Positions 28,709 through 55,900 of a stretch of DNA of 64,000 bases are shown here, one piece after another (position 1 is the stretch's first letter; the number at the start of each line of letters is the position of its first letter). A model generated the notes under the pieces. It searched no databases and was not told the origin of the DNA. It worked only from the letters and a program-made list of their open reading frames with translations. The stretch is taken from positions 682,001 to 746,000 of the forward strand of contig OY253684.1 of NCBI GenBank assembly GCA_958009085.1. Direction: 5' to 3'. The translations under genes and the position numbers were made by a program. Source of the stretch: Protoeuglena noctilucae. Its lineage: Eukaryota.

Positions 28709-29916
28709 ATGTCCAAGAAGGGCTACGAGCAATCGCCCTGGGTCTTTGAGGGGCGGGCGCTGTACCAGCTCCACCTGGTGAAGGCGTCCGAGGCCGCAAA
28801 ATACATCCCAGAAGGACTCAAACTCGTCCAGCTTTTCGGGTGCGCATGTCGTGACCTGAGTCGCCTCGACGGGGAGCTTCCAGGACACGGCAGACCACGG
28901 CAAGCGCGTTCCCCGACCGCAGGTACACTCTGGGCGGGCTGTTCCTGGCGCGGTACGACGACTCGCCCACGGGCAAGTTCAACGAAATGGTGGTGCTCGC
29001 CGGGCTGGCCTGGAACCCGCCCACGTCTTGTGCGTGGGCTGCCCGTGTGCTTGTGGATAGCGTGCCAGCAAGAGACCATGGGCTTCGCGCGGTGGGGCTG
29101 CCCTCGCGCATTGCGGCCTTCCGGGCCGCGCCCAAGACCGCTGTTGGCACGGGCCAGGTGCCCGGGCTCAGCTGGTGGGGCGCGCACTACAGCCCACGGG
29201 GGTTCCGGCCAGCTGCCACCCGAGCGCGCGAGGTGGGTCGCTGCGCCTCTCCCGAGCATTTTAAAACAAGCTTTGTCAATCCAACATGTCCCCCGCGCCT
29301 GCCTGCCTGTCCCAGTGCCCCCTGTGGCCCGCCAGCCCCGAGCCCCCTGCCAGCTCTCACTTCGCCAAGGGCTTGCCTGTGGAGGAGGGTGACGGCGGGG
29401 AGGTGGACGTCTTCAACATGGAGCCGGGCTCGAGGGGCCACGCTGGGCCGCTGGCGCACCTTTCCCTGCCGCCTGCCCGCCCCTGGTGGCAGTGGGCTGG
29501 GCCGCGCGTGTGCCTGCCCCTGCCCAGCTTCAGTGGGCTCACGGATGCCGTCCCGCACATGCTGCGTTACGCCTGCGACATGCACGCCAACGTCAGGCTG
29601 TGCAAGCCCATCTCAGGTGCATGGCAGCGGCTATGCGTAAACTAAGCCTCGGTCCCTGCATGGGACAGGTGTCGTGGTCCTGACACTGGAGCCCCCCGCC
29701 TCTGGCATTGCAGTGTCGCTCCCGTCACGGACGAGCAAGGACAGCGAGGAGGGCCCCGAGAGCATGGCTGGGGTTCTAAAGGGAGTGCCGATCCTCTGCA
29801 TCGCGTTTGATGAGATGCGCATGTCGGTGCAAGAGCCGGTGCGGGTGCCTGACCCGGCGACGCAGAGGGCGGTTAAGAAAGCCGTGGCCCTTGCTTCGTT
29901 GGTCAAGGCGTGCTAA
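28709..29916 (+). CDS. NXD1: NEOXANTHIN-DEFICIENT 1 homologue
   Basis: GYEQSPWVFEGRALYQLHLVK...FGYTLGGLFLARYDDSPTGKFNEMVVLAGLAWNPPTSCAWAARVLV...GLPSR, LPSFSG. Confidence 0.92.
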
Positions 29917-30078
29917 TCTGGTTCAGACAGCTAGTAGTTATTTGATGCCAAATTTTTAGCACTGAGACCTGCCCAGCTGCGCCCTCCAGCTCTCCCCGGG
30001 CTGACCTCCTGCGCCGTCTGAGTGCATCAAGTCCTCCAGCCTTTAGGTTGGAGGATCAACATTCAACCCTGTAGGACC

Positions 30079-33000
30079 CTACAAGTCCATCGTCACCACT
30101 ACGCACTCCTTGCTCACACACGCAGCGTCTGCCACCATCATCTTGCCCCTCAGCTCTCTAGCCAGCGCGCTGCCGTCACTGCTCCCGTCCGCCGCCCCCA
30201 GCTCCCGCAGTGCTTGAGTGGGAAGCCTCACCACGACGGCAGCAGCGGCATTGACCGTGGAACGAGCGGACCAGCACAGGGTGTCGTCCGCGGTGAGTTC
30301 TAGTGACAAAAGGCTCGTCACTAATAGGGTCATTGGGATCTTGCACAGCAGAGCAGGGGGCGTCGCATGCATATCCCAGGCACAAAGGTCGGCGCTTCCG
30401 GTAAAAATGTTGCTGAAAATTACGGAAACCAGAATGCCGCCGTCGCAGGTAATGGCCAACCATATGGGAACATGACTCAGCATTGTCGGTACGATTGCAG
30501 AGCGCGTGCTCCCGACCTCAAAGGTGCACAGGTTATACTTTGTGGCACTCTCCGCAGAGTCCTCATCGGGTTCCCCAACTGCCACCGCCACCGCCACCAC
30601 CCCCCACGCGCAGTCCCGAGACGTTGCTGACTTTGCTGCCTCCCACGCCCTCCCATCGGCATCGACACACCTTGTCGGCAGCACGCGCCTGGCCTGCCCA
30701 GCGACGTCCTCTTGCACCAAACTACCCTCCTCCCACACCCACAAGCGCTCCCCGTCAGGGCTCAAGAAGTCCACAGCCTCCCGCACTATCTTTGCCTGCT
30801 CGCCCGAGGATGGGCTCCAGGCATACAAGACGCCGCGGCTGAGCAAGTACAGCTTGTCCTCCCCAGCAAAGCAAAGATGCCAACCGTGCCATCTGTCTGC
30901 CCCTGGCACCTCGGTATCAGCCAGCATCTCCCCCGTTGCCATGTCCCACACTAGCGCCCAGCCGCGGTCGCGCATCAAAAAACCAGCAGCGCCCCTCTTG
31001 CGGTCAGGCGAGATTGCCATTCCCAGGACCCGTACACCCACATCCACCTTACAGATGCGCACCCCCGTCCTCGCATCCACAATGCGTGCAGTGCTTTCGT
31101 TTTCCGCTTGCACCACGAGCACGCCTCCATCGGGCGAAAGACTAGCTACATACACTTCTCGCATAGCATCAATGTCATCCCCGCCGACTATGACTGGCGA
31201 GTCCCCTTGCTGAGCCGACATATCCAACAGCCAGGTCGCAGTACCGGTCGTAACCCCTAATGTCTTACCAGTGGGGTCTACCTGTATGTCACGCAGTATA
31301 GCTTTGATCTGGAACACAGCCCAGGGGCACTCTGTGACTGCATCACGAAGGCTCAGCTCTAGTCCACCTGAGATAAGCTTCGACGTAACAATGAACGCTC
31401 CATCAGGGCTGGAATACAACCCGTGGTCTTTTGCTGATTGCCGCAGCTCTCGCCACGACTCCCTGTTGTGAAAGACCCCGCCTTCGATTTGTGTGACGAT
31501 GGTCGCCCCGTCAGGGCTGACCAGCGAGTGGCTGCCCTCCAGAAGCCCACGCTGCTTGCCCACCTTTGCGTCCCACACGAGCATCCCCCCACTGACAACC
31601 GCCATAATCCCATCGCCATCCGAGATGATCTCTCTGCTGGACGAGGTGGATGTCCCTTCCAGCTCCGCCCGCAGCTGCCCCGACTGCACGTCAAACACCC
31701 TCAAGTTGCTGTTTCTCGGCTTCATCGCCACCCACGCGCCGTCTCCACCCACCATGCCCAGCTCAATCTCCAACGCTGCCACCTCGGCGAGCGGCCCCGC
31801 AGGCACTGCCAGCTCCTCCCCACTGGGCACGCCCCACTGGCGGTAACCCCGCTCCGTGACCGCTCCCACCGTCGTCCCCCCGTTCATGAGCCCCGCATCG
31901 TGCACGTTGACAAAGACCTTGGCACCCTTGCCAGGCAGCGGCAGCAAACTGCCCGCCATGCAGTCCACAAGGTACAGCCCTTTGTTTCCCCAGACTGCCA
32001 GCGTGGCTCCGCTGGGGCTGAACTGCATGCCCCTTGCCTCAAACCCGTCGTCCGGCAGTCCGACGACCAGGGTCCTCGCCCCCGTCACGGTGTCCCAGAG
32101 ACTGACTGCTTGCTTATCCACCACCCCCAGCACGTCGCCCTCGGGCGAGAAGGCCATGGCATCTACGGGTCCAGAGGCCAGTACCTGCGCCTCCGGGAAC
32201 CCGTCCATGGTCCCCACCACCCGCACCCGGCCGTCCACGAGCCCCTCGCGCGCGCACGCGTCCCCTGCAGCATGCATCCAGGTACCCTGCGGCGCCACCA
32301 GCGCCGCATCCACGGCCACGCTGGGGTTGCTGACGAGGACAGCCGAGAAGCATCTGCGAGCGAGTCGAGATGTCGACAGGATGCAGTCAACCCCATACAG
32401 AGCAGACATCAACGAAGCTAGACAAACACGTCGCCCCCGTTTCCCTTACCTCAGCCACGCCCTCGTCTCCTGCGCGGAAGCAGCCTTGGGGTGTGACGAC
32501 GCCCTCAGCGCCTGCGCCGCCCTCGCCACGTCCCTCACCAGCCGCCCCACCTCCCCCGCCTCCGCGCACGCCCGCACGTACCCCAGGCTCGTGCACACGC
32601 CCGCAGCCACGCCCAGCTCCCCAGCCTCCACCGCGTGGTGCAGCGTGTACACGCTGGCGTACGCCCCCAGCGTCTCCACCACCGCCCCGCTCCCGCCGCC
32701 CTGCCCCAGCGCCTCCACCTTGCGCCCCCACACCACCGCGTGCAGCGCGTGGCCCACCCGCACGTCCACGTGCCACCCCGACGCCTTGTCCTCCGCCAGC
32801 CAGTCCATCACCGACCTGCATGGCGTGTGAGAGCGCACGTCAGGCTCACCGGTACGCTCCACCCGCCCCCAGCCCCACCACTTTCCCCATCGCCAGCCCC
32901 GCCGCGCCTCTGCCGCCACTCACTTGTGGAAGGGCCGTACGCGCCCGTCCGCGCCCACAGGGAACAGGCTGCCCATGGCCCCCAGCACGCGCGCGGCTGC

Positions 33001-36000
33001 CCCCGCGTCCTCGTCGCCGTGCTGGACCAGCTCCTGCAGCTCCGACAGGCTCAGCGGCTCCACCGCCGCCACCAGCGCCGGCAGCACCCGCGTCCGCACC
33101 ACCTCCACGTCCCGCTCCGCCAGCGCCCTGAACTGCCTGCAAATGCAACCGGACGCTGACATGCGCCACCCCTGTGCAAGCCAACAGTCCACGTGCCATG
33201 CAGACCTTGCGATCCACGCCCCCAACATCTGTGCACCGCCACATGACCACCCGCCCATCCCCACCTGTCGAAGTACTCCTTGTACAGCGCCCGGTGCCCC
33301 TCCGGCAGATCCCCCACCGCCATGCTCGCCACCCCGCCCTCCGCCCTCGCCCCCACCTCCCGCTGCACCATGCCCACCAGCGCCGCCACATATGCGAACA
33401 CCCCCCCGCTCTTCCCCTCCAGCGCCTCCACCACCGCGCCCCTCTCGTCCTCGCTCAGCCCCTCGCTCCTCAGGCTCCCCCGGATGTACGCCCGGATGTC
33501 CTCCCGGTTGCGCCCCTCGCTCGGCTCCAGCGTGAAGGGCTGGAACCGCGCCACCTGCCGCACGATGTACTCCTCCGGCCGCGACGTCACCAGCACCCGC
33601 ACCCACCCCGGAAGCTCCCCCACGCACCCCGACAGCATCTGTAGCACCCCGTTGCTCCGCGCATCCGCCCCTGCCTCGTCCACCGCGTCGATCACCAGCA
33701 CCACCGGCGCCTTGGCCCAAGCCACGCCCTTCGACGGGCCCACCACCAGGCTGCGGGGGCGCGGTTGACGAGAAGGCTGTTACACATGCACACTCGCATG
33801 GACACATGTTCATGCATGCCACAAAATGCGCATCCCACTCACCTCCGGAACCAGTCCATCGCCGTGCCGTTCAGGTCCAGCTCCCGCAGCCCCTCCTCCA
33901 CCGCCGTCGCCGCCTCCGGCACTGCCTCCGCCAGCTGGTACGCCAGCGACTGCGCCATCACCCTCGCGTCCGTCCTCGACTCGTCCCCCGCCCGGCAGAA
34001 GTGTCCCCCCAGCAGCCGCCCGGCCTTGTGCAGCTCCAGCGCCACGTGCGCGGTGAACGCCGTCTTGCCCATGCCTGCGGACGACCGGGGAGGGGTGCGT
34101 GGCAGTGAAACGGGCCTTCACCGCATCCCTCCACTCCATGTCAGCCCTCGCGCTCGCCAGTCGCTGTCACTCGCCTGGCAGGGACAGCAGCAGGAACATG
34201 TTGCTGGAGCGCTGCGCCTCGCTCCGCGTCGTCGCCTTCCCGTCCACCCACACCATGACCTCCTCGGCCAGCCACCCGCGCGTCCCCACCTGCGAGCCAT
34301 AGACAATGGACCTGCTTCACCCCCGACCCCATGACGTGATCACATGCGCCCCCGTGCTCGCTCACCATAAACCCCGCCTCCCGCAAGTCCGCGTCGTGCA
34401 GGAAGTCGTGGTGCTTCAGCACCCCGGCCAGCCTCTCCAGCGACCCTCCCGCCGGCTCTCCCTTCTCCCCCCTCTCCCTGCCTTGCGTCACGGCTGCCGC
34501 CAGGTTCCTGGCGCTCGCACGCTTGCCCGCCCCGCCCCGCGCCTCGCTCCTGCCCTTGCCCGCGCCGTTCACGTGCACGTACCACAGCACGTCCCGGAAC
34601 CGCACGCTGCCCCACTCCAGCTTGCCCCTGCGCTTGGCCCCCTGCGCCAGCTGGTACAGGTTGTGCGCCTGCACCCTGTCCGCCGGCGCCAGCAGCCGGT
34701 GCAGGTCCGTCCGCACGAACTCCGCCAGCTCCGGCGGCGCCAGCGTCTCCTCGTACCACCGCGCGGCCTCCTCCAGGATCGGCAGCTCCTCGTTCAGCAG
34801 CGCGATCTCAAACAACCCCCACTCCATCTCCGCCGCCACGTGCGCGAACCCCTCGTCCTCGTCCACCCACAGCCGCCGCAGCTCCCCCGGCAGCTTCTTC
34901 ACCTCCTGCGGCTCCGCGTCCAGCACCTGCCCGATCTTCCGCTCCAGCGCCTCCAAGCCCCTGTCTACGCGCTCCCCCAGCGCCGCCACCTGCTCCCCCA
35001 CGTTCTGCACCAGCCCCGCCAGCACCTGCTCCCCCGGCGCCAGCAGCCCAAACACCGCCTCCACCCTGCCCCGGTCCCCCAGCACCGCCCGCAGCTGCGC
35101 CGGTGACGCGTCCTCCAGCCGCTCCGCGCCGGCCTCCTGGGCCAGCCTCTCTGCCAGAGCCCTGCTCGAGAGCAGGCTGCCGTCCTCCACCGCCGACCGG
35201 ATCTCCTGCACCCCGCGCAAGGTCTCCACCTGCATGGCCGCCGTCAGCACCCCCACCTGCCCCAGCACCTTGCCCGCCAGCTCCTGCAGCCCGTCCGTGT
35301 CGCCCCGCGCCTGCAGGAACCGCCCCAGCCACGTCCGCGTCTCCACCTGCTGCACCAGCCCCGCCGCCTCCTCCAGCAGCCCTGCACGCGGCAGCGACAT
35401 GGCGGATTTGTAAGCTACGCTGCACGCGCCCCTCCCTCGCACGAAGCCATCTCACTCCGCCGCCGCTCTCTCCGCACCCTTCAGCTCCTCCAACGCCCGC
35501 GTGTGCTCGCTCAGCACCTCGTGCGCGCCCACCACCACCTCCATCACCCCCGCCACCACGCGCTTGAAGTCCCCCACCGCTGCCCTCACCGACACGGCCT
35601 GGGAGGCGACGGCAGGCGCGCTCGTTTGCGACGTCAGCCGGCTCGCGGCACGTGCTCCGCGCAGCCACCATCGCCCTCACCTCGGCGATGCCGGCCATGA
35701 CCCTGGACGCCACTTCCGCCAAGGGCCCCACCATGGGCGCCCTCGCCAGCACCTCCATCGCCTGCATGCCGCCCCTGGCCAGGATCCGCAGCACCTCCCC
35801 GGTCACGCTGTTCGTCTGCGGCGTCGCGCATCGAAAGCACGATAGCTCCCAAAGCATGATCGCTCACAAAGCGCTCGCGAGGCGACGCGCAGTCGGCGCC
35901 CGCGGCCGCAGCGATCACCTGCAGCAGCGTCACGATCTCCGGGGCCAGCGGCGCCACAGTGTCCCACAGCTTCTGCGCACACAAAGCAAAAGAACTCGCC

Positions 36001-36614
36001 CCTGCCCTTCCCGCATCTTAGCGGCCCGACGCTGCGCCGATCCATGGGCCCGGCATGACCCTATACGGCACTCAGCCCAGGATGCGGAGCCCAGCGTCCC
36101 AAACGGCGGACTCGGAGGCCCTGACCCAGAGACCTAACTATGTCCACACCTGCAGCTCGGCCACGCGGCCCTGCCAGCCCTCTTGCGCGGCCGCAGCACC
36201 CTCCGCGAGAGATACGTGTTCGTCATCTTTCGCCGCCGCCCCACCGGGGACCTCGCTTGTCGCGCTCGGCCGGTCCTGCACAATCAAAGCAGCTGGTTTG
36301 GCAGTGTCGCGAGGCGGGAGAGGAGTGCGGATCGCTGGCTGCTTGACATAGTATGCAGAGACTGCGCCGGGCAGATGCAGGCCACGCACCGGAGCCCCGG
36401 CGCGGCATCGGAGGAGGGCGGCATGCCCTGGCGGAGCGCATGCGCAGCGCGCCAGGGCGGCCCCGCTAGCTGCAGCGGCGCTGACCTGCGTCTTGCTCAC
36501 GTCAATGCCGCACGCATCCACCCCCGGTGCTGCCGCGTTCCCCACTCCTTCTCCGGAGGACACGGCTTTCTCCGTCGCATCTCCCGCCGCTGCCTTGCTC
36601 GCCCCGCAGCCCAT
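30079..36614 (-). CDS. NLR-like STAND NTPase (~1,780 aa, ~12 exons): MGCGAS acylation motif, MLKL/HeLo-like 4-helix bundle, NACHT, WD40-like propeller
   Basis: Spliced MGCGASK...; APMVGPLAEV...LLEEAAGLVQQVETRTWLGRFLQA; GTRGWL; Walker A SLPGMGKT; HFCR...SLAYQLA; Walker B VVLVIDAVDE; VLVTSRPE; GVFAYV; LPEG...LYKEYFDR; PFHKSVMDWL; WD-like repeats AFSPEG, QFSPSG, VSPDG, LSPDG. Confidence 0.88.
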
Positions 36615-36872
36615 GCCCGGGACCGATCGCTTGGACCTGCCAGCCACAGCTTGCTCTGCCAACCCAGCTCAAGCCTGCTTTGTGTCGCTGCCAACTCTCA
36701 ACTTGTTGTGGGGTCACAGCCAGCCAGGGCTGCATGCGTCCCAGCATATGCTGACAGCGACGGGAGCGCGCACATTGCCACGCCACCAGCATCGGCTGCT
36801 CTGTAGGTTCAAGCAGCAAGGTGGTGGGAATCTGATGCCGGAAAACTGGCATGCCAGTACGCAGGCCTGTCA

Positions 36873-38465
36873 TTACAGGTCGACCACCGAAAGGTCCATC
36901 CGCGCCCTCCAGCTCTCCCCGGGCTTGACCTCGACCGGCTTGTCGCACACGCCGCGCTCGACGCAGCAGAACTCCTTGTAGCAAGCCTCCATGGCAGTCC
37001 ACGGGCTCCACACCACCACGTCCTTCCACCCGTCGCTCGAGATGGCCACCGCCGCGCCCGTCCCGACGTCCCTGCATGCAGAACGTAGACATGGATTGCA
37101 TGCAGGCGCATGCATGCGAGTCTGCATGCCTTGGCTGCTTCGTAGGCACTCACAGCTCCACCTGGTCCCCAGCATTCAGGTACACTGAGTCCTGTGGTAC
37201 AACGGCAAGGGAGTGTGTTTTGTAACTTCATCGGCTGCTTCAGGGCATCATCTGAACCTAAACAAGCCTCGCCATCTGCACACCAGGGACAGAGACCCAC
37301 ACGACTAGCAGAGGTCGCGTGAGTGCCTGACGCTGTCACCTTGGGGCCAGAGAACGTGATCTTGTCAGCGGTCTCGGTCTTCTTCGCCGGGTTCTTCGGG
37401 TCCGCGACCTTGTCCAGGTAGGACAACCCCTTGAGGCCCCGCACGGCGGCCTTGGTGATGTCGGCCACCTCGAAGTAGCTGTGGAGCGCAGCCGTGAAGG
37501 TGAAGGGCTTGGTGTCCTCGTTGATCACACGGAAGTCCGTCTTGAGCGTCTCCCCGTGCAGGGTCTGCGAGAAGAGGGGCACGCGGTGGTTGCCTGCTCT
37601 TGCGCGGGGCGGCCCAAAACTCGCCAAATCGACCACGCAAGGAAGGCAGGTGCAACCACCGGCTGCCAGCCGTGCTAACTGCAGTTCTGACAGTGCTGCC
37701 ATACCCAGGCACCCTGGGCGACGCCATATGGTGAGGCCCCACGTTCTGCTCACCACCGTGTACACGGCCCGGAACTTGAAGGGCCACATCTTGGTCGTGT
37801 AGTCATTGGGCGTGAGCACCAGCTCGACCTCGGGGTCGCGCTCGTCGGGCTGCACGTCCGCCGACGTGCTGCCGATCGCCCAGTCGAGGTTGCGGGCGAA
37901 GCCGTGCTGCTGCATGGCGCCCGGGCCGAACTGAGGGAAGCAGTGCGGGATGCCGCCCGAGATGGGCTTGCTCTTGTCAAAGACGGCGTCAGGACGCACG
38001 TAGAGCACCTCCGAGCCGTTGGCCTGCTTCCAGGAGATGACGCAGCCGCCGAACAGGTAGACGTCCGCCGACGCGCCGCACGAGTGGGTGAGGCGCACCA
38101 TGGGGAGGCCGCCGCGGCCCTCCATGATCTGTACATGATCCTTGATGCCGAACTTCTTGTTCAGCTCCGCCACGTCCGTCGTCGTCGCCTGCGCGAGGAC
38201 GGCACGCCTGCAGGAGGCCACGCATATTTGGCATTGGATCTCGCTCCTTGGCGTCCGATCGCCGGCGCCACTGTGTCCATGGGCATGAGCAAAGCAACAG
38301 CGAGGAAGTGCGACCCGATCGCGAGGCCAGTCACCCGCCCTGCGTGTGCACAAAAGCAGATCGTCCCGCGCTCCGCCTCAGAGCGATGGCCGGCCTGCAG
38401 GGCGCTGCGCCCCGCTGCACGCTCAGCGTGCGCTGGCATGCGATACCCGCGGGAACCGCGATCAT
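36873..38465 (-). CDS. Glucose-6-phosphate 1-epimerase / aldose 1-epimerase family, probably plastid-targeted
   Basis: GRGGLPMVRL...VYLFGGCVISWK...KPISGGIPHCFPQFGPG..QQHGFARNLDW...FTAALHSYF...DVVVWSPW...FCCVE; transit-like exon 1 MIAVPAGIACQRTLSVQRGAAPCR. Confidence 0.92.
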
Positions 38466-38981: not shown

Positions 38982-41900
38982 ATGGCGAGGCGGGCATGGC
39001 GTGGGGTGACGAGCGCCCCAGGGTTGCTGTCCGGGCTGCCTTGGCGCCCTAAGGCCGTGGGCCCCCCCCGCGCCGCGTCTTCTTACCGGCGCTCGGCGCC
39101 CGTGCGATATCGGCGTGACAGCGAGCGTACGGAATCGGGCAGCAGGGCCAGGGAGGGGGGAAACGGCTCGTCGACGGCGGAAGGGTGCGTGCAAGGGCTG
39201 CGTGCATGGGCGACAGCTCCCCGCCGTCCTCCTAGCCGCGGGAGCACGAACGCGGTTTCAAATCGTGAAAGAAGGACTCGATTTCAATGTTCAGGTGAAC
39301 GATTCCCGCGTGCCGTCTTTCGTCCCACCGCTAACGGCCCTCGTACTTTGCGCAGGAGACAGTTGGAGGAGAAACAGTCGGTGTTGGGAGTCGGGACCCA
39401 CCGAGCGGCGAGGAAGCGCGATGTCATCGAGGAGGATAGCGGCGCGACCTTTGGAGTCACGAGCAGGTGCACGGGGCTGCGTATGACGGGGCGCTCCGTG
39501 GCGCGGTGGTCGCCGCAGAGGTGAGCTCACCTCTGCGCCGTGGTCGCCTGCGACCAACCGCACTTCTTCCGTCCCGCAGCGATCTGCAATTCATCTGCTC
39601 TCGCCGAGGGAAGGACGAGGTGTACGCGTGCGGGGTGGCGGGGTCCAAGGAGCAGCTGGCGGCGCAGCTTGGGTCGTGCCTCACGTCTGGCATCCCCCAC
39701 GAGGACCCGGACGACATGAAGAGGCGCTGCGATGCTTTCGGAACGAACACTCTGCCAGAGAAGGAGGCCCTCACTTTCTGGCAGGCGCTTGCGGAGGCGT
39801 ACGACGACTTTACGCTCCAGACCCTCACGGCAGCGGGCATCGCCAGCATCGCCATCGAGCGCGCGAGCAACCCGGGCGCTCACCTCCAGGATTACATGGA
39901 GGGCCTCGCCATCCTGGGTGCCGTGGTTGTGGTGAGTAAACCCACGCTCATGCACCTGGACCCGTGTGTCCGTGTAGGCCTAGCGACATCAAGCCCCGGT
40001 CCGCCCCATCCCGCAGTGCGTGGTGGTGGTGGCGGTGAACAACTATCAGAAAGAATCTCAGTTCCGCGCCCTCAACGCGGCTGTGTCGGACCGCCCCGTC
40101 TGCGTGGTGCGGGGAGGCGAGCCTCGGGAGGTCTCGTCCACCGCGGTCGTCCCAGGCGACATCCTCTTAGTCGATGCAGGTGAGTGTCGCAGCAGCTGAG
40201 ACTCGGGCCTTCCTTCGCCGTTGCCAGTTGCTCGTTCAAGCTACCACACCGTTCAAGGCAACGCGTGACGCCTATTGTTGCCCCAGGGGACATCATGGTG
40301 GCGGATGGGGTGCTCGTGGCCGGGTCGGATGTGCGGGTGGACGAGTCGCACTTGACGGGGGAGAGCGAGGACGTGGCAAAGGACACCAAGGATCACCCGC
40401 TGATGCTGAGCGGGTCACGGGTCATGCACGGCAGCGGCAGGGTCCTGGTGCTGGCGGTGGGGTGCTCCTCCCAGCAGGGCCAGATATCGGAGCTCGTGCA
40501 GGGGAATGGCGCCCTCGACGCCCCCAAGAAGCGCTCGCACCTTGGCGAGTCCCTGGAAACCCTGGCGCGCCAGATCGGCACGGCGGGGGTCGTTGCAGCC
40601 GCCTTCTGCTTCGTCTTCCTGGCGGGGCGCGTGCTGATCGACGCGTCGGTCGCGGGGACTCCCTTACTACAGGTGGGTTCGTGGGACACGCCTGGGGTGG
40701 CGTTGAGAAGCAGCGACGAGGTCCGCTGCGACCGCTTCATAAACGCCGTGCACGCAGCCGTCTGTGCTTCACGAGCTGATGGAGGCTGTCATCATCGCCA
40801 TCACCATCCTCGTCGTGGCCATTCCGGAGGGGTTGCCACTCGGTGAGCACCGCAAGTGTGCGATGAGCGCCGCCAGCGTGCCCGCAGCACACATCCCCGC
40901 ATTCGACTGCTCCACGTGCCTGACCCCCCCATGCGCACCTGCCCTTTCGCAGCCGTCACGCTGGCGCTGGCTTACAGCGTCAAGCGGATGCTGGCAGATA
41001 ACAACCTGGTCCGACACCTGGACGCTTGTGAGACGATGGGGTGCGCCACGACCATTTGCTCGGACAAGACCGGCACGCTCACGACGAACCGGCAGACGGT
41101 CGTGCGGCTCTGGACCTCCCGTGGGGAGCATGCCATTCCAGCCTCTATGTCGGCCCCTCTCCCCCGTGACATGGACCCGGCCCAGTACAGCCCCGACCGC
41201 CATGTGCCCTCGTCTCCAGCCTCATCCCGCCACGCAGGCCCAGCGCCGGTCGTGGGGCTCCGCAGGCTGGTCGGCCCCGGGCGCACCCGCGCCCACCCCA
41301 TCGCCGCTGCAGCGGTCGAGGGAGGGGCGCTGCACACAGAGCCACTGCCGGGGCGGCCGGCGTGGGCGTCGGCGGCGCAGCGCTACGGCCTCGTCCCGAC
41401 CCTGCTCGCCTTGGCCGATGCCGGCGGCGGCCCTGAGGTTGGCGGCACTTCAGGGAGCGCAGCTGGTGCGGGTGCTGCCCCCGAGTTCCTTTCCCGGAGA
41501 GAGGGTTTGGACCCCGACCAGCTGGTGCTGGACGTGGCGTGCCAAGCCGTGATGCTCAACTCCACGGCGGTGGACCAGTTCGACAAGGCGGCCGGGAGGC
41601 GCAAGTTCTCTGGGACGAGGACCGAGGTGGCGCTCCTCAAGCTGGCACGGGGCTGCGGCTGGGGCTTCGACGCGCTGCGGGACGCGCACCGGGAGTTGCG
41701 TGTGCTGCCCTTCAGCAGCGCGCGCAAGCGTATGACGACGGTGGTGTCGGGGGCGCTCAGGGGCGGGCGCGGGGACCCGGGGCGCGCCGTGGTGCTCTGC
41801 AAGGGGGCCGCGGAGGTGGTGCTCGACAAGTGCGACCGCGTGCTGCTGCCGGGGGGCGCCGCGTGGCCTCTGGATGCGGAGACCAAGGCGAGGCTGCTGT

Positions 41901-43486
41901 CGCAGTCGTGCCGCAGCCACCTGCGCGTGCTGGCAGTGGCATTCAAGGTCCAGGACACGTCTCGCGCGACGGAGGACTCTGAAGATGAGCTCGAGTCCGG
42001 CCTGACGTTCGTGCTGTTGGCGGGCATCGAGGACCCCGTGAGGGAGGCGGTGCCGGGGGCCATCGAGCGGTGCCAGCGGGCGGGCATCGTGGTGCGGATG
42101 CTGACGGGCGACAACGCCATCACAGCCGCCAACATCGCAAGGCAGTGCGGGATCCTGCGGGAGGGCGACGTCGCGCAGCTGGGCCAGACCTCGTCGAGCG
42201 GCCGCGACGACCCTGAGGGCCCTGAGGGTGCGGGTATGCCTTCCGTTGTGACGCCGGAGGGCGTGCAGGCGCTCCAGGCGGCTGGGGTCGTCGTGGAGGG
42301 GCAGAAGTTTCGGGAGACGGTGCTGCGGCCGGTGAGAGATGAGATGGGACGGTGCTCGTGTAGCGCGTGTAATGGTGATGGTCGAGGGAAGCCCGGCCCC
42401 TCGCCGCGGCTCCGCAGGACGGCAGCGTGGACTGGCCCGCGTTTCTGGAGCTGTGGCCGAGCCTGCGCGTGATGGCGCGGTGCACGCCGCAGGACAAGCA
42501 CCTCTTGGTGACGTGCGTGCGGGCGATGGAGGAGCGCGGGGGGCTCAAGGAGGTGGTGGCGGTGACGGGCGACGGCACCAACGACGCGCCCGCGCTGCGC
42601 ACGGCCGACGTGGGCTTCGCGATGAACAGCGGCACGGCCATCGCCAAGGACGCCTCGGACATCGTGCTTCTGAACGACGACTTCCAGAGCATCGTGAGTG
42701 CGACCAAGTGGGGCCGCAACGTCTTCATCTCCGTGCGCAAGTTCCTCCAGTTCCAGCTCACGGTCAACCTGGTGGCCATCCTCACGGCCACCGTCAGCGC
42801 CGTGGCGCTGCAGACGAGCCCCCTCTCCGCCGTCCAGATGCTCTGGGTCAACCTCATCATGGACTCACTGGCATCGCTGGTGAGAGGCACTGTGCGCGCC
42901 CTTACACTGTGCGCTCCCTGTAGCTGGCGCGTCGTGGCCAACTGAATGCCACCCGGGGCTCGTGTGACGTGGGCCGCAGGCGCTGGCAACGGACGAGCCC
43001 ACGGAAGAGGTCCTCGAGCAACCGCCGTTCAGTGTCTCGGAGCCCATGGTCACGCCGGACGTGGCGAAAGGGATCCTCGGCAAGGGCCTGTACCAGCTCG
43101 CCGTCATGTACGCTCTGGTGTTCCAGGCCCCCACGGTGCTGGGCCTGGCCGAGGGCGACATCGGCAGCGTCCTGCACTGGACGATGGTCTTCAACGCCTT
43201 CGTCGTCATGCAGCTGTTCAACCAGGTCAACTGCCAGATGGGCGCGGGCGTGCGGTCGCAGGAGGACGTCCTGCGCAGCCTGACGGGGAACGGGACGTTC
43301 CTGGCCGTCGTCGGGGCCGAGCTCGCGCTGCAAGCAGGAATTGTGCAGTTCGGCGGGGCGTTGTTTCAGACGCAGCCGCTGTCGCCCCAGCAGTGGGCGG
43401 TGTGCTTTGGCTTCGGCGCGCTCTCGATGGCGCTGGCGCAGGCGCTGCGACCCTTGCGCGCCCCGGCGTGGCTGCGGTTCGGGTAG
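38982..43486 (+). CDS. P2B-type Ca2+-transporting ATPase (ACA/PMCA-like)
   Basis: VDESHLTGES, VVAIPEGLPLAVTLALAY, ACETMGCATTICSDKTGTLT, PFSSARKRM, KGAAE, MLTGDN, VAVTGDGTNDAPAL, RKFLQFQLTVN, QMLWVNLIMD; start approximate. Confidence 0.95.
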
Positions 43487-45620: not shown

Positions 45621-47624
45621 TTACTCCTCGCTGTCCCGCGGTGCCGTCACGCCCGCGAGCCCCGCGTCGGCCGTCGCCGCAGCCAACTCCTGCGCCACGC
45701 TGTTGCTGGCCACCAGCTCGTCGATGTTGTCCGCAATGCCCGCAGCGATGGTCTCCAGTGGCAAGATGCTGTACGGCTCCTCGATCTGGGGGCGCAGACT
45801 TGCAGAGGGCATCTTGTGTGGACGCTCCACGCTGCGCAGGGGCGCCGACGCTTGGCGCGACCAGTCACACCCTGTGCCGCACCTGCACCCCGATCTCGTC
45901 GATCCCAAGGAGGAAGAATGCCAGAATGAACGTCGCTGGGACCGTGCCCCATCCGAGGCTGGCCCAGAGGCTGGGGGCAGGTAAACACCAACGAGTCGCA
46001 ACGACGGGGCAGAGCATGGGGTGGCGCTGACTGGCGCATGGGAGCCGCCTGGCACGGCGGCGACTCACCCGAAAGGCAAGAAGAAGAGCCAGGAGGTGAT
46101 GAAGCGGCTGATGTGGTGCGTGCAGAAGAGCGGGACAGGTGTCTTGAGGATCTGCGGGAGGTGATGACCCGAGTTGACCTTCATGGCCTCCAGTACATAT
46201 CGCATCGCAGACAGCAGCACCCCTCGCGGGCTTGCGCTACGCACCCGCTCCATCCCACCCATCATGTCCTCCAGGCACGTCAGGTTGGACTCCATATGCA
46301 CGCGGATCATCGGGTCGAGCTTGGCCCTGGCGAGGCAGCTCGCGAGCACCTGCACGGCCGCCGTTAGGGACATCTGTCAAAACGTGCATGGGTCGGGTGC
46401 GACCAACCCAGGCCAGTGGAAAGCCATCCACCGGTGAGCTCGCCTGGAGAATGAAGTTTGGGTGGTGCTTGGCCGCGAGCACTGCGTCCAGCTCTCGTGG
46501 CGTGAGGCCGGCGCGCGCGAGCTTGGGCTTGAGCGTGGGGTCGTCGCGGAGGTGGCACTTGAGGGCGATGGGGAAAACCTTGGTCCACTTGACAGTCACC
46601 GCGGCCATATCAGGGTCCATGTACGCGAGCGACATGCGCACGATATCTCGGGAGCGGTTGACGACCTTGCCCCACTGGGCCCGTGCTTCCCACCAGCGAG
46701 AGTAGCTCGAGTTCGTCCGGAAGACGAGAAGCAGGGACAGCGCGAAGGATGTCAGTGTGAAGGGGGCCAGGGTGAGGTAGGGCGGAGGCGGGAGCCGGGG
46801 AAAGTAGAAGCGCTGGACGTCGTGGTAGGCGACCACTGCCGCAGAGAGGATCGTGAAGAACAGACACGGCCCCGCCAGGGAGCGCACGATCCCCGACCGG
46901 AGCATCGAGTAGATGTGGCGGCCGTAACGGGCGATCGAGCGATGCTCGACCCAGTCGTGGCAGGTGAAGCTGGTGCGTCTGCGAAGGCACAGGCGCAGAG
47001 ATCGACATGGATACACCCCCTCGCTACCCGCGCCACGCACTCACATCATCGGCGACGTGGGCGGGTGAGCGAGACATTGCTCGCTCATTGCCGCTGAAAG
47101 GCATGCAAGAGAGTGCAGCGCGCGCGCTCTTCTCAGACACCTGTACATGCGCATGCGGTCCCAAACATCCTGCTTCGTCCTGCCCGCCGGAGGCGGGGCG
47201 TCGAAGCCGAGGTCCGAGTTTGCCTGCGGAAGACTTGGTCCTGGCTGTCCCTCCTCGGCATCTACCGAAAGCCGCACACCCGATCTGTAGCCACGCCAGG
47301 ACGCCTGGGGCACCAGCACGCGGGCATGCGACCAGTCCTGCAAGGACGCCAAGGCGGTTGCTGGATACGCTCCGATGGCCGCATCCGACCGACCGTGCAT
47401 GTTGAGATGATTTACGAGATGCTGCAGCCGTCCCTCACCACCGATTTTCGTGCCGCAGAGCTCGGGGCATGCTTCCGTGACGAGAAAGTCCCATTGCGGC
47501 CGTTCCTCGCGTCCGCGAAAGTCAGTGACCTTTCCCTGGTGCTGGATCCCTCGCTTTCAGACTCATCGTCCGCAAAGTGAGGCCGCAAGGGTTCCGCGAG
47601 GCCTGCGGCGGCCGCGGTCGCCAT
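45621..47624 (-). CDS. Bestrophin-like anion channel (VCCN1/BST/UPF0187 family)
   Basis: FTCHDWVEHRSIARYGRH, PFTLTSFALSLLLVFRTNSSYSRWWEARAQWG, ERILKTPVP, FFLLGIDEIGVQIEEPYSILPL; start uncertain. Confidence 0.9.
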
Positions 47625-52900: not shown

Positions 52901-55900
52901 AACCACGAGACGCAGGTGCTGGAGATCTACGTCCGCGACGTGCCCATCTCGGGCCGCACGCTCCTCGGGACGGTCCGCCTGCCCCTGTCGTCCCTCCCGC
53001 CCGACCGCACCGTGTCTGTGTGGCTGCCCATCGCCCCCGCGCCCATCGCCGCGCCCGAAGCCACCGCGAGCCGTCGCGTGGGCCGCGAGCGCTCCGCGGG
53101 CGAGCTCCGGCTCGAGCTCACGTACACGCCCTTCACCGAGGACGATGCGGATTTGGGATACCGCGAGGCGGAGCGGCTGGCCCAGCTCGTGCGCGAGCAG
53201 ATCGGGGAAATCACCGACGTCAAGAGCGCGGCCTACGCGAGCTCCCGGGCGGCGGTGGCCACCAGCGCTGCGGTGAGCGATGCGCGACTGCCACGGCTGG
53301 CGTCCGCCACCGCCTCGCTCAGAGGAGGGCGTGCCTGCGAGCGATGTGTTGTCGAACATCGCTGGCGTGTTCGCGCTCGCAGGTCAGCGCCCTGGCGGCG
53401 ACGAAGGCCAAAGCGGCGCGGGCAGCGGCGAGGGCGCTGCTGAGCTCCCGCAAAGCCCAGGCTGCAGCCGCGGAGATTCGGATGCCCCGCGCGCCGCCGT
53501 CCCCGTCCGCGCCCGGCGCTCTCCCGGCCGAGATAGAGCGCATGGCCGAGTCGTATCAGAACTTCCTGCAGAGCATCTCGGAGGACCCCGACAGGGCTGG
53601 GCCTGGCATGCGGGAGGAGCTGGCCATGTACGGCGACGGGCAGGGCTGGGGCATGGCGGGGCTGGGAGAGGAGCCTCCTTCCGAGGTGACGCGCAGCGCG
53701 CGAAGTGATGCGGCGCGTTCCGCTGCTCTGGCGGGCGTAGCATGTGCACGTGCGGGGCTGAGACGACGGGCATTGCTTTGCTTGCCCCTTGGCTCGGGCT
53801 CATGATGTGGTTTGCTTATGACACGTCGTTTGCCGCGTCCCGTCCGCAGGCGGACCTTCTCCGGCGGTCGCAGCGCGGTGGTCGCAGGGCCGTCATTCCC
53901 CCATGGGTGCGCCGCCCCGGTCCGGGCGAGCTGAGCGCGTTTGGCGTCTCGGACGTCCTCCCGACGGTTCGCGTCCGACAAAACACGGACGCCTCGGACG
54001 AGGAGATCGACTCGGTGCTGCGGGACGAGATCGGAGGGGCGGCATCCTCGTCAGACCGGGCACTGCCTGAGTCGGGGCGCGACGCGTCAGAACCCACGGC
54101 AGGGGCGGGGGCTGGGGCGGGGTCGGGGTCGGGGTCAGAGGCAACGGGGGACGCGGAGGAGGCGTCCTCGAGCAGCGGCGCGAGGTGGGAGCATTCGCGG
54201 GGTGCAGCTGAGGATGCACGTCTGCCGGTGCACGCGGGGGGCACATGGGCGGGTGCGGAGCAGGGGAATGGGAACGGGGCCAAGCACGCGGGGTCGCATG
54301 GAATGAGCCACGGGGGGGTCTACGGGGCAGCGCACGGGCGGGGGCGGTCGTTAGCGGAGCGCATGGGTATGGGGCGGGGTGGGCCGGCTGGGGTGTCTGT
54401 GGGGCCTCGGATGACGGCGAGCGGCGACGAGTTTGCGGGCTGGGATGGCATGGCGGGGTCGCATCCGGGGCGGCCGGGGCCCGGGGAGCGAGAGGGAGAG
54501 GGAGAGGGAGAGGAGGCGTTGGTGGTGGCGGGGGCGTCGGGACGGACGGCGGCGGAGGGTGGGGTGGCGAGGGAGGTCTCGCGGGGTCGGGGGGCGGGGC
54601 ACGGGCGGCCTGGAGGGGGTTCATCGAGCGGCGGAGGGGACAGGGGCGCAGGGCAAGCCGAGCCGGGTGACGCGGATTCACTGGCGTTACGGGAGGAAGT
54701 GGTGGCCTCCTGGATGGCACCCGGGCCTGGCGAGCAGGGGGTGCCGAAAGAGGGCGGGAGTGACGACAAGGGCAGCGGGGGCGATGAGGAGGGTGGTTGG
54801 GCTCGGGACGACGGGCGGGCGTTTTGGGGTGTGGAGGAAGTGGGGCCTGAAGGGCTGTCTAAGAAAGTGGGGCAGAGTCCGGGGCAGCTGGAGATCACGC
54901 TGGGGAAGGAACCGGGCGGGGAGTCTCGTGTGGCAGAGGCGGCAGAGGGGCGGGGAGGGAAGGAGGGCGGGGAGGGCAAGCGCGGGGGCGGGGGGTGGCT
55001 GGGGTGGGTGGGGGCGGTGGGGAGCTGGGCGGGGGGGCTGTTCCGGCGGGGGAAGCGGGAGCGGGAGGAGGGTGGCGAGGGCGAGGGGTCTGGCAGTGAT
55101 GGGGAGGCGTCTGCGGTGGCGGGGGCGTCTGGCAAGGACGGGCGGCCCTCGCGGGGGCGGCCGGTGTCACCGGACCGGGGCCGGGGCAAGGGCGGGGACG
55201 GCGCGGCGAGCCGGGAGAAGGGCGCGGCGCCGGAGGGGGCCAGCACGGGTGGGTGGCTGCGGGGCGGGCGGTACTTGGGCGCGGCGGCTGTGCGCCTCAC
55301 GCAGCGCACTGCAACGCAGTCTGTTGTTTGTCTGTTGTCTCAGGGGTTCCTTAGGACCCCGCAGTGTCGCTGCGCATCGTGTGTAACCCCTGCGCGACAC
55401 GTCTGAGTGGTTGCAATGTGTGCTCTGCGCGTGCAGGGGCAGAGGGGCCAAGGCAGGAGGAGGAGGGTGGTCCTCTGACGCGTGTGCCCGTGCCTGACGT
55501 AAACCCGGAGGAGATTCTGCGGCAGGTCTGGCGCGTGATGACGCTCAAGGACGTGAGGGTCGAGTCGATGTGGCGGAGGTACCTGCAAGAGAGCGAGGTG
55601 AGGGAGCAGAGGCGGAAGCAAGTGGCGGTGGCATGCGCTGGGAGTGATGAGGGACAGGCACCTGCAAGAGAGCGAGGTGAGGGCAGCGTCACACGCGGGT
55701 GGTCATTCAGTGTCGGTATAACGACAGGCAGCGTCCGGTGTAGGCGGTGAGGGACCTGCAGGCTTCGATCTCACCCTTAAGCGCTTTGTGACGGCGGCCC
55801 GTGGCCCTCGGTTCGCAGAAGCCCTGGCTCCAGCTCCTGGCCTTCCTCATGGCCGTCATGATCGTGCTCCTCTGTGTCGTCGCGTACCGTTTGAAGGAGG

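Follow-up and report, generated by a model that had tools for sequence, protein, structure and literature searches.

A transcribed NACHT-WD40 gene with a probable MLKL/HeLo-type N-terminal domain in Protoeuglena noctilucae

Results

We analysed a 64,000-nucleotide (nt) stretch of Protoeuglena noctilucae DNA (GenBank assembly GCA_958009085.1, contig OY253684.1, positions 682,001 to 746,000 of the forward strand), referred to here as the window and numbered from its first letter. Its minus strand carries, from 36614 to 30079, a gene whose product has, in order, an acylation motif with an acidic spacer, a helical domain, brace-like helices, an EF-hand-like domain, a NACHT nucleoside triphosphatase (NTPase) with its winged helix, and a series of WD40-like blades. 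This nuclear gene is intact and transcribed. We regard it as reasonably probable that its product is a STAND (signal transduction ATPase with numerous domains) protein of the NOD-like receptor (NLR) type, which carries an effector of the MLKL/HeLo kind and works by the mechanism set out below. A first-pass annotation, made from the sequence alone, had proposed the same architecture of acylation consensus, helical N-terminus, NACHT and WD40-type C-terminus, and was right in this.

Gene structure and transcription

Splice-site placement, corrected with RNA, yielded a minus-strand coding sequence (36614..30079) of 5,268 nt made up of 12 exons in one continuous frame. It starts with the ATG at 36614, and its stop codon occupies 30079-30081. 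The frame is open from end to end, with zero internal stops. The rebuilt model bears out the earlier proposal of about 12 exons splicing in frame into one large protein, although the length given then, about 1,780 amino acids (aa), is replaced by 1,755 aa. All of the peptides quoted at the time (MGCGASK, both helical stretches, GTRGWL, SLPGMGKT, VIDAVDE, VTSRPE and FHKSVMDWL) are found in the translation. Ten of the 11 introns are GT-AG and one, intron 7, is GC-AG (donor GCGAGT); the acceptor is CAG in all 11. Over the gene region the GC skew is strand-specific and well beyond chance (-0.23 to -0.32), with strong negative values at 30-36 kb in a window whose GC content lies between 0.61 and 0.74.

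RNA contigs from four marine metatranscriptome runs were aligned to window positions 29700-36900 and cover both halves of the gene. Joints with CT..AC ends (GT..AG on the minus strand) connect 36275 with 36486, 35972 with 36150 (X1), 35815 with 35919 (two runs, X1 and X4) and 32353 with 32450, confirming introns 1, 2, 3 and 11. RNA support extends to six introns in all: at intron 8 a joint of equal length is offset by 6 nt and is ambiguous, and at intron 9 a loose end of 11 letters at 33139 matches the end of exon 9. The same data set the end of exon 1 at 36486 (not 36501) and the short form of exon 3 (35972..35919). Exon 12 is covered without splice joints, and introns 4, 5, 6, 7 and 10 are without RNA cover. 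The predicted exons are thus borne out by RNA at introns 1, 2, 3, 8, 9 and 11, whereas for introns 4-7 and 10 the support comes from alignment to a relative.

That relative, P0009, emerged when exon 6 (338 aa) was searched with HMMER against 1.84 billion representative proteins. Eleven proteins were found at E<=0.001, one of them the open reading frame (ORF) of the window itself, and most are exon-sized ORF calls. P0009 is an uninterrupted ORF of 1,119 aa, present on contigs of about 3.7-4.1 kb, which starts with MGCGASS and continues through the helical and middle domains to a complete NACHT. By BLASTP the spliced model aligns to it in one segment (aa 122-1031 of the model with residues 176-1091 of P0009 at 37% identity; 965 columns, E 9e-137) that spans eight exon junctions and is ungapped with conserved flanks at six of them; gaps stand six residues past junction 4/5 and, seven columns wide, two residues ahead of junction 5/6. 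The junction between exons 7 and 8, SLP|GMGKTAFTA, is identical in P0009. Because the spliced model aligns in one piece to an uninterrupted frame, introns 4, 5, 6, 7 and 10 are supported, and because MGCGASS, the helical and middle domains and the NACHT all lie in the one ORF of P0009, the 5' exons are part of the same gene as the NACHT. This argues against the possibility, raised with the first annotation, that the 5' exons come from a separate transcript.

Other searches for relatives returned little. Limiting the exon 6 search to longer proteins gave none at E<=0.001, exon 6 and P0009 as single queries found no relative among metagenome contigs, and a protein search with the family profile (A1) gave three matches, two of them previously known. 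The exon 5 evidence also includes P0012, a read-through ORF from a relative that is 92% identical. At residues ~20-95, between MGCGASS and the helical domain, P0009 has a further helical segment, about 70 residues long, which is absent from the window protein.

Several features of the RNA are recorded here as observations. One contig (36226-36670) is unspliced over intron 1 and could also be DNA or pre-mRNA; intron 1 itself (36276-36485, minus strand) is 210 nt long, stop-free and in frame, so that a transcript keeping it would encode a disordered N-terminal spacer longer by 70 residues. At 31892-32349, 33048-33105 and 34538-34816 some contigs differ slightly from the window, at 95-99% identity (for example, 24 differences over 458 nt), and many contigs from the same runs continue into dissimilar sequence. 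This suggests a second allele, a strain or a very recent paralogue in the sampled population.

The NACHT NTPase and the WD40-like C-terminus

The NACHT begins in exon 7 (34175..34289; GTRGWL ... FLLLSLPG), which ends in the GC-AG donor. Exon 8 (33843..34074) encodes the Walker A residues GMGKT and further NACHT helices, exon 9 (33265..33750) Walker B, sensor-1 and a helical domain, and exons 10 (32924..33136) and 11 (32450..32815) together the winged-helix region and a helical spacer, the latter exon being linked to exon 12 by the RNA joint across intron 11. Pfam NPHP3_N (PF24883, cut-off 24.8) matches exon 8 at 34.2 bits (E 3.6e-08) and exon 9 at 24.9 bits, and it covers the whole profile (1-164 of 164) in P0009 at 63.1 bits (E 4.7e-17). 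The general NACHT family (PF05729) stays under its cut-off of 26.7, at 19.1 bits for exon 9 and 22.2 bits in its other match, and a weak match to HTH_TANC1 (E 0.073) falls on the winged-helix region of exons 10-11. NACHT domains are recognised by Walker A (GxGK[ST]), Walker B (hhhhDxxDE), sensor-1 (TSRP) and winged-helix (FxHxS) motifs. All four are intact here (PGMGKT, VLVIDAVDE, VLVTSRPE and FHKSVMDWL, respectively) and conserved in P0009. Profile and motifs identify the NTPase as a NACHT, as the first reading of the sequence had it, and the profile places it in the NPHP3_N type. Intron 7 (34075-34174, minus strand), the only one with a non-GT donor, divides the Walker A loop between SLPG and MGKT; it lies outside the RNA cover, and its support is homology to P0009.

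Exon 12 (30079..32353, minus strand, 757 codons plus the stop) encodes about 14 degenerate WD40-like blades, located on a motif map as units of the SPDG/hWD type. Its Pfam matches are weak ones to beta-propeller families, Beta-prop_THOC3 (4.4e-07), WD40_Prp19 (2e-06) and ANAPC4_WD40 (0.006); the classic WD40 family PF00400 is not listed for the window sequence. Exon 12 has 46 relatives at E<=0.001, three of them close (itself and two at 70% and 41% identity). The 43 distant relatives bear many precomputed beta-propeller and WD40 Pfam families, and most of those named by their source are WD40 repeat proteins. These profile matches and relatives agree in identifying the C-terminus as WD40-type beta-propellers, as had been proposed.

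The helical domain

The helical domain (about aa 104-260, with brace-like helices after it) is encoded by exons 4 to 6 on the minus strand. Exon 4 (35681..35815, 45 aa) holds the first helices, including the conserved hydrophobic helix APMVGPLAEVASRVMAGIAE, and aligns without gaps to P0009 and a second relative, P0007. Exon 5 (35478..35598, 40 aa plus 1 nt) supplies the next helix, and the start of exon 6 (35185..35381) contributes helix 3, the short helix RTWLGRFL and helix 4. It is this last part that aligns to Pfam MLKL_N (PF22215), a family listed for six of the nine family sequences at E values from 3.8e-06 to 0.17, all below the 27-bit cut-off: 26.9 bits in P0006 (E 3.8e-06), 22.1 in P0011, 18.4 in P0007, 15.2 in P0009, 14.1 in exon 6 of the window (residues 2-61 on profile positions 65-124 of 142, E 0.034) and 11.8 in P0008. 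MLKL_N ranks first in exon 6, P0006, P0007 and P0011, third in P0008 and fourth in P0009, and for the bundle region of exon 6 and P0011 it is the sole family listed at E<=1. Most of the region is missing from the three sequences that have no match. In all six alignments the register is the same, with exon-6 residue 1 at profile position 64-66, and since chance matches would not share one register we do not take these matches to be chance.

The family profile was also searched against 177,635 PDB sequences, giving 11 matches at E<=10, of which seven are MLKL. The top six are human MLKL N-terminal domains (E 0.008-0.06, residues 59-116), and mouse MLKL is found at E 0.95. The alignment sets the family pattern V-x-x-V-R-x-R-S/T-W/F-h-x-R-F/L-L-x-A-x-x-D against MLKL E-K-F-S-N-R-S-N-I-C-R-F-L-T-A-S-Q-D, and the motif R-x-R-S/T-W/F-h-x-R-F/L-L within it belongs to a short cross helix between helices 3 and 4. 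The kinship with solved MLKL bundles indicated by this profile search is marginal but specific. AlphaFold2 (AF2) models of P0007 (12-row alignment, mean predicted local distance difference test, pLDDT, 69) and of exon 6 both set a short helix between the long helices 3 and 4; their confidence in this part is low (pLDDT 41-74). A helix in this position is common to MLKL and the HeLo-like domains in the available portion of PMC9815663.

In a protein language-model atlas the P0007 domain lies beside fungal clusters at 0.93-0.94, one of which has MLKL_N on 36% of its members; in this atlas scores >=0.9 arise by chance 4-10 times per 100. Pfam HeLo, HeLo-like, Goodbye, NACHT_N and RPW8 are not listed for the window exons or the relatives, phmmer of exon 6 and P0009 against PDB sequences gave no match, and Foldseek of the exon 6 model against the PDB returned nothing at E<=0.001. 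We consider it likely that the helical domain, in its second half (helix 3, the short cross helix and helix 4), is homologous to the MLKL_N / HeLo-like superfamily.

The middle EF-hand-like domain

The AF2 model of exon 6 (10 sequences) is confident over residues 161-270 (pLDDT 89-97), where a helix-loop/strand-helix pattern occurs twice. This conserved middle domain (exon-6 residues 156-274, aa ~344-462 of the protein, 34558..34914 on the minus strand), newly noted between the bundle and the NACHT, is EF-hand-like in its modelled fold. Compared with 48,161 chains, its sole match at Z>=8 is the tyrosine-kinase-binding (TKB) domain of c-Cbl, 6xar_A 176-264 (VIA Z 8.1, root-mean-square deviation (rmsd) 2.6, 87 residues), which we take to be the EF-hand part of that domain. 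In a second structural search Cbl, Cbl-b and Cbl-c chains fill the first 16 of 50 rows (Z 6.6-8.2, rmsd 2.3-3.0, 83-89 residues), four of them reaching into the preceding Cbl helix, and calmodulin-type EF-hands rank lower (Z 3.4-5.5). A Z of about 8 is, however, the typical best score in this background for models without a true match. Sequence identity to Cbl is 10-11%, the family alignment shows no conservation at the canonical Ca-ligand positions, the Cbl families Cbl_N and Cbl_N2 are not listed at E<=1 in the window exons or the relatives, and the protein atlas gave no usable match for this domain. The end of exon 6 (34366..34557) encodes a Gly/Ala/Arg-rich linker and then the conserved pre-NACHT segment HHDFLHDADLREAGFM, modelled at pLDDT 38-57.

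The N-terminal acylation motif and spacer

Exon 1 (36486..36614, minus strand, 43 aa) opens with MGCGASK (codons 36614..36594). N-myristoylation sites follow the PROSITE pattern G-{EDRKHPFYW}-x-x-[STAGCN]-{P}, and a pattern check shows that MGCGAS(K) fits the consensus for N-myristoylation (Gly2, Ser6) with palmitoylation at Cys3. Myristoylation of Gly2 and palmitoylation of Cys3 are therefore predicted, as had been suggested for the MGC start, and the MGCGAS start is kept in both of the two family proteins having a complete N-terminus, the other being P0009 with MGCGASS. Upstream of 36614 there is no in-frame ATG back to the stop at 36669-36671, and an RNA contig reads through the start codon and extends to 36780. 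About 100 acidic low-complexity residues lie between the acyl motif and the helical domain. They include exon 2 (36150..36275, 42 aa), identified as acidic spacer by composition and bounded by RNA joints on both sides; exon 3 (35919..35972, 18 aa) comes next.

Interpretation

By analogy with MLKL, the fungal HeLo/HELL NLRs and the plant coiled-coil (CC)/RPW8 resistosomes, as these are presented in the portion of PMC10197012 available to us, a mechanism can be proposed. The acyl groups would hold the resting monomer at the membrane. Binding of a ligand by the propellers would relieve autoinhibition of the NACHT, nucleotide-dependent oligomerisation would then cluster the N-terminal bundles, and the clustered bundles could disturb or permeabilise the membrane and so give a cell-death or ion-flux signal. 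Membrane action and a role in immunity or cell death are what we infer from these analogues.

A number of points weigh against this interpretation. The MLKL_N matches all fall below 27 bits, exon 6 scoring just 14.1, and their alignment is limited to helices 3-4; the first two helices were judged through the relatives P0007 and P0009. The P0007 model has pLDDT 57-74 in its helical part and draws helices 2 and 3 as a single long helix. Foldseek with this model found nothing in the PDB at E<=0.001, and a wide structural search with it returned generic four-helix bundles (best Z 11.0, where about 13 is the threshold advised for helical bundles) and no MLKL in 50 rows. Since the model has such low confidence, the missing MLKL is not evidence against the fold. 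The N-terminal half shows no transmembrane-like segment, and some 100 residues part the acyl site from the bundle, unlike in MLKL and HeLo, where the first helix stands at the extreme N-terminus according to the available portions of PMC10197012 and PMC9815663. PADLOC gave no family match, NCBIfam gave one weak beta-propeller match on exon 12 only, and the window holds no immunity-suggesting neighbour or immune-gene cluster, the context being housekeeping. Of the MLKL/HeLo-like bundle as first proposed, the consistent sequence-profile matches, with human MLKL as the first PDB match (E 0.008), hold up; every one of the Pfam matches is sub-threshold and the AF2 fold does not confirm it.

The strongest competing explanation takes the protein for a lipid-anchored STAND scaffold outside immunity, comparable to nephrocystin-3, NWD1 or TANC, which would organise a signalling or a flagellar/ciliary complex and whose N-terminal helices would be ordinary coiled-coil or adaptor modules, not pore-forming ones. 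NPHP3_N is indeed the best Pfam family of the NTPase and a weak TANC1-type winged-helix match follows it, human NPHP3 is N-myristoylated for ciliary targeting, and the gene has housekeeping neighbours and no paralogue elsewhere in the 64 kb; the sub-threshold MLKL_N signal and the unconfirmed fold point the same way. Yet the NPHP3_N profile also fits the NACHT of fungal NWD-type NLRs. At E<=1 no family other than MLKL_N is listed for the bundle of exon 6 and P0011, and in P0006 and P0007 it outscores every other family. Its six matches keep a single register, and human MLKL tops the PDB profile search. On this evidence we think a scaffold unlikely.

We find it quite improbable that the N-terminal half is a Cbl-TKB-like module of bundle and EF-hand, binding a partner peptide or Ca2+, in a protein that would be a ligand-gated adaptor and not membrane-damaging. 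The best structural matches of the middle domain are all Cbl-family TKB chains, and in Cbl a four-helix bundle stands before the EF-hand. Against this, the Z of about 8 lies within background, identity is 10-11%, no Cbl_N family appears at E<=1, no SH2-like part follows the middle domain and the Ca-ligand positions are unconserved; a Cbl-like middle domain would moreover be compatible with an MLKL-like bundle upstream. That the gene model is an artefact, with 5' exons from another transcript than the NACHT-WD40 exons or a decaying pseudogene, is highly improbable: introns 4-7 and 10 are unbridged by RNA contigs, intron 7 requires a non-canonical GC donor and contig 36226-36670 is unspliced over intron 1, but P0009 has all the N-terminal parts and the NACHT in one 1,119-aa ORF that aligns in one piece over the junctions, the 5,268-nt frame is open and RNA contigs lie on both halves of the gene.

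The reading that we favour, an NLR-type protein with an MLKL/HeLo-type effector, admits a bolder form. Marine phytoplankton may possess a lipid-anchored, single-chain, necroptosis-like immune receptor, in which an MLKL-type executioner, an EF-hand-like gate and a NACHT-WD40 sensor kill the infected cell (for example on detection of a virus), and the fusion of an MLKL/HeLo head to a nucleotide-binding oligomerisation domain (NOD) may have arisen or been kept outside fungi and land plants. We offer this tentatively, as a possibility that is on present evidence rather doubtful.

Comparison with known systems

NLRs with HeLo-like or MLKL-like N-termini, NACHT and WD40 repeats were reportedly described in fungi by Dyrka et al. 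in 2014 (PMC4986451). The fungal HeLo-like/MLKL-like (HELL, BaMLKL) NACHT-WD40 proteins have the same order of MLKL-type bundle, NACHT and WD40-type propellers, and in the available portions of PMC9815663 (Wojciechowski et al. 2022) and the review PMC10197012 such heads on NACHT-WD40 proteins are common in fungi. The short helix between helices 3 and 4, modelled at low confidence in the window family, would be a further trait in common. In contrast to them, the window protein comes from a GC-rich marine eukaryote and has the MGC motif, a spacer of about 100 aa and the extra EF-hand-like domain. Its family is tiny: only 11 of 1.84 billion representatives belong to it. In the portions of these sources at hand, neither an acyl motif nor an inserted EF-hand-like domain is noted for fungal or plant counterparts. 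The fungal HeLo-like/MLKL-like NLRs are closer analogues than HET-E/HNWD of Podospora, with which the gene was first compared. That comparison holds in layout only, with NACHT and WD40 repeats behind an N-terminal death effector (here a putative one); the HET domain itself is absent from the window protein, no HET family being found at E<=1 in the window exons or eight relatives.

Animal MLKL (PDB 2msv, 6zvo and 4btf) aligns to the family profile at residues 59-116 with E 0.008, including N-R-S..C-R-F-L-T-A..D, and in both proteins a helical brace follows the bundle. The switch differs: in MLKL it is a pseudokinase phosphorylated by RIPK3, whereas here it would by analogy be the NACHT-WD40 module. 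The two sequences have low identity, and the models leave the fold unconfirmed. Among plant CC-NLRs, some carry N-terminal acyl groups. Plant NLRs combine NB-ARC with leucine-rich repeats, whereas the window protein combines NACHT with WD40 and has no RPW8 Pfam match. In the RPW8-like CC helper NLRs (ADR1/NRG1) and the CC-NLR resistosomes a four-helix-bundle effector precedes a STAND NTPase and acts on the membrane upon oligomerisation, as far as the available part of PMC10197012 describes them; plant MLKLs were grouped with these helper NLRs as a comparison system.

Proteins with NACHT or a nucleotide-binding (NB) domain and C-terminal WD40 repeats have already been published from green algae and cyanobacteria (Arya and Acharya 2016, PMC4773052; Andolfo et al. 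2019, PMC7145615). In the portions of these two surveys available, no N-terminal effector domain is reported for the algal NACHT/NB-WD40 proteins, and a later survey used TIR, RPW8, CC and Lipase_3 profiles, not MLKL_N, in the part of it available (PMC13315243). A full-text literature search found, in the passages it returned, no MLKL-type head described on an algal NACHT-WD40 protein. Plants (CC/RPW8 NLRs) as well as fungi (HeLo-like NLRs) are known to have membrane-damaging receptors of the bundle-NOD-repeat design, and animals have the bundle by itself in MLKL. If our interpretation is correct, a transcribed MLKL-like-NACHT-WD40 gene would extend this design to a further lineage. Phytoplankton, in which mortality caused by viruses matters ecologically, would thereby gain a concrete candidate gene for regulated cell death.

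Genomic context

The neighbours of the gene are an aldose-1-epimerase-like gene directly upstream (36812-38377, minus strand, E 1.6e-32), a multi-exon P-type cation ATPase (39440-43483, plus strand), a bestrophin-2-like gene (46068-47040, minus strand, E 7e-37), a mitochondrial carrier, a kinase, Rpc25 and a TELO2-like gene. No second copy of the NACHT-WD40 gene lies within the 64-kb window. An algal source is suggested by the GC content, the short introns with CAG acceptors, the bestrophin-2-like neighbour and the marine origin of the RNA runs. Farther along, at 53709-55403 (plus strand), is an open frame of 565 codons with very strong positive GC skew (0.377 at 54-56 kb); Pfam lists nothing for it, and it does not resemble the NLR gene.

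A perfect direct repeat of 24 bp brackets the whole gene. The distal copy (29979..30002, plus strand) lies 77 bp past the stop codon, and the proximal copy (36902..36925, plus strand) falls within the 3' end of the aldose-1-epimerase-like gene, 288 bp ahead of the ATG. These two copies are the only ones in 64 kb, and the similarity extends to about 37 bp at 92%. An apparent RNA joint from 36900 to 29979 was rejected as a misplacement caused by the repeat, the contigs simply continuing beyond 36900. The repeat may be a trace left when the gene was inserted or duplicated, or it may serve as a substrate for presence/absence deletion.

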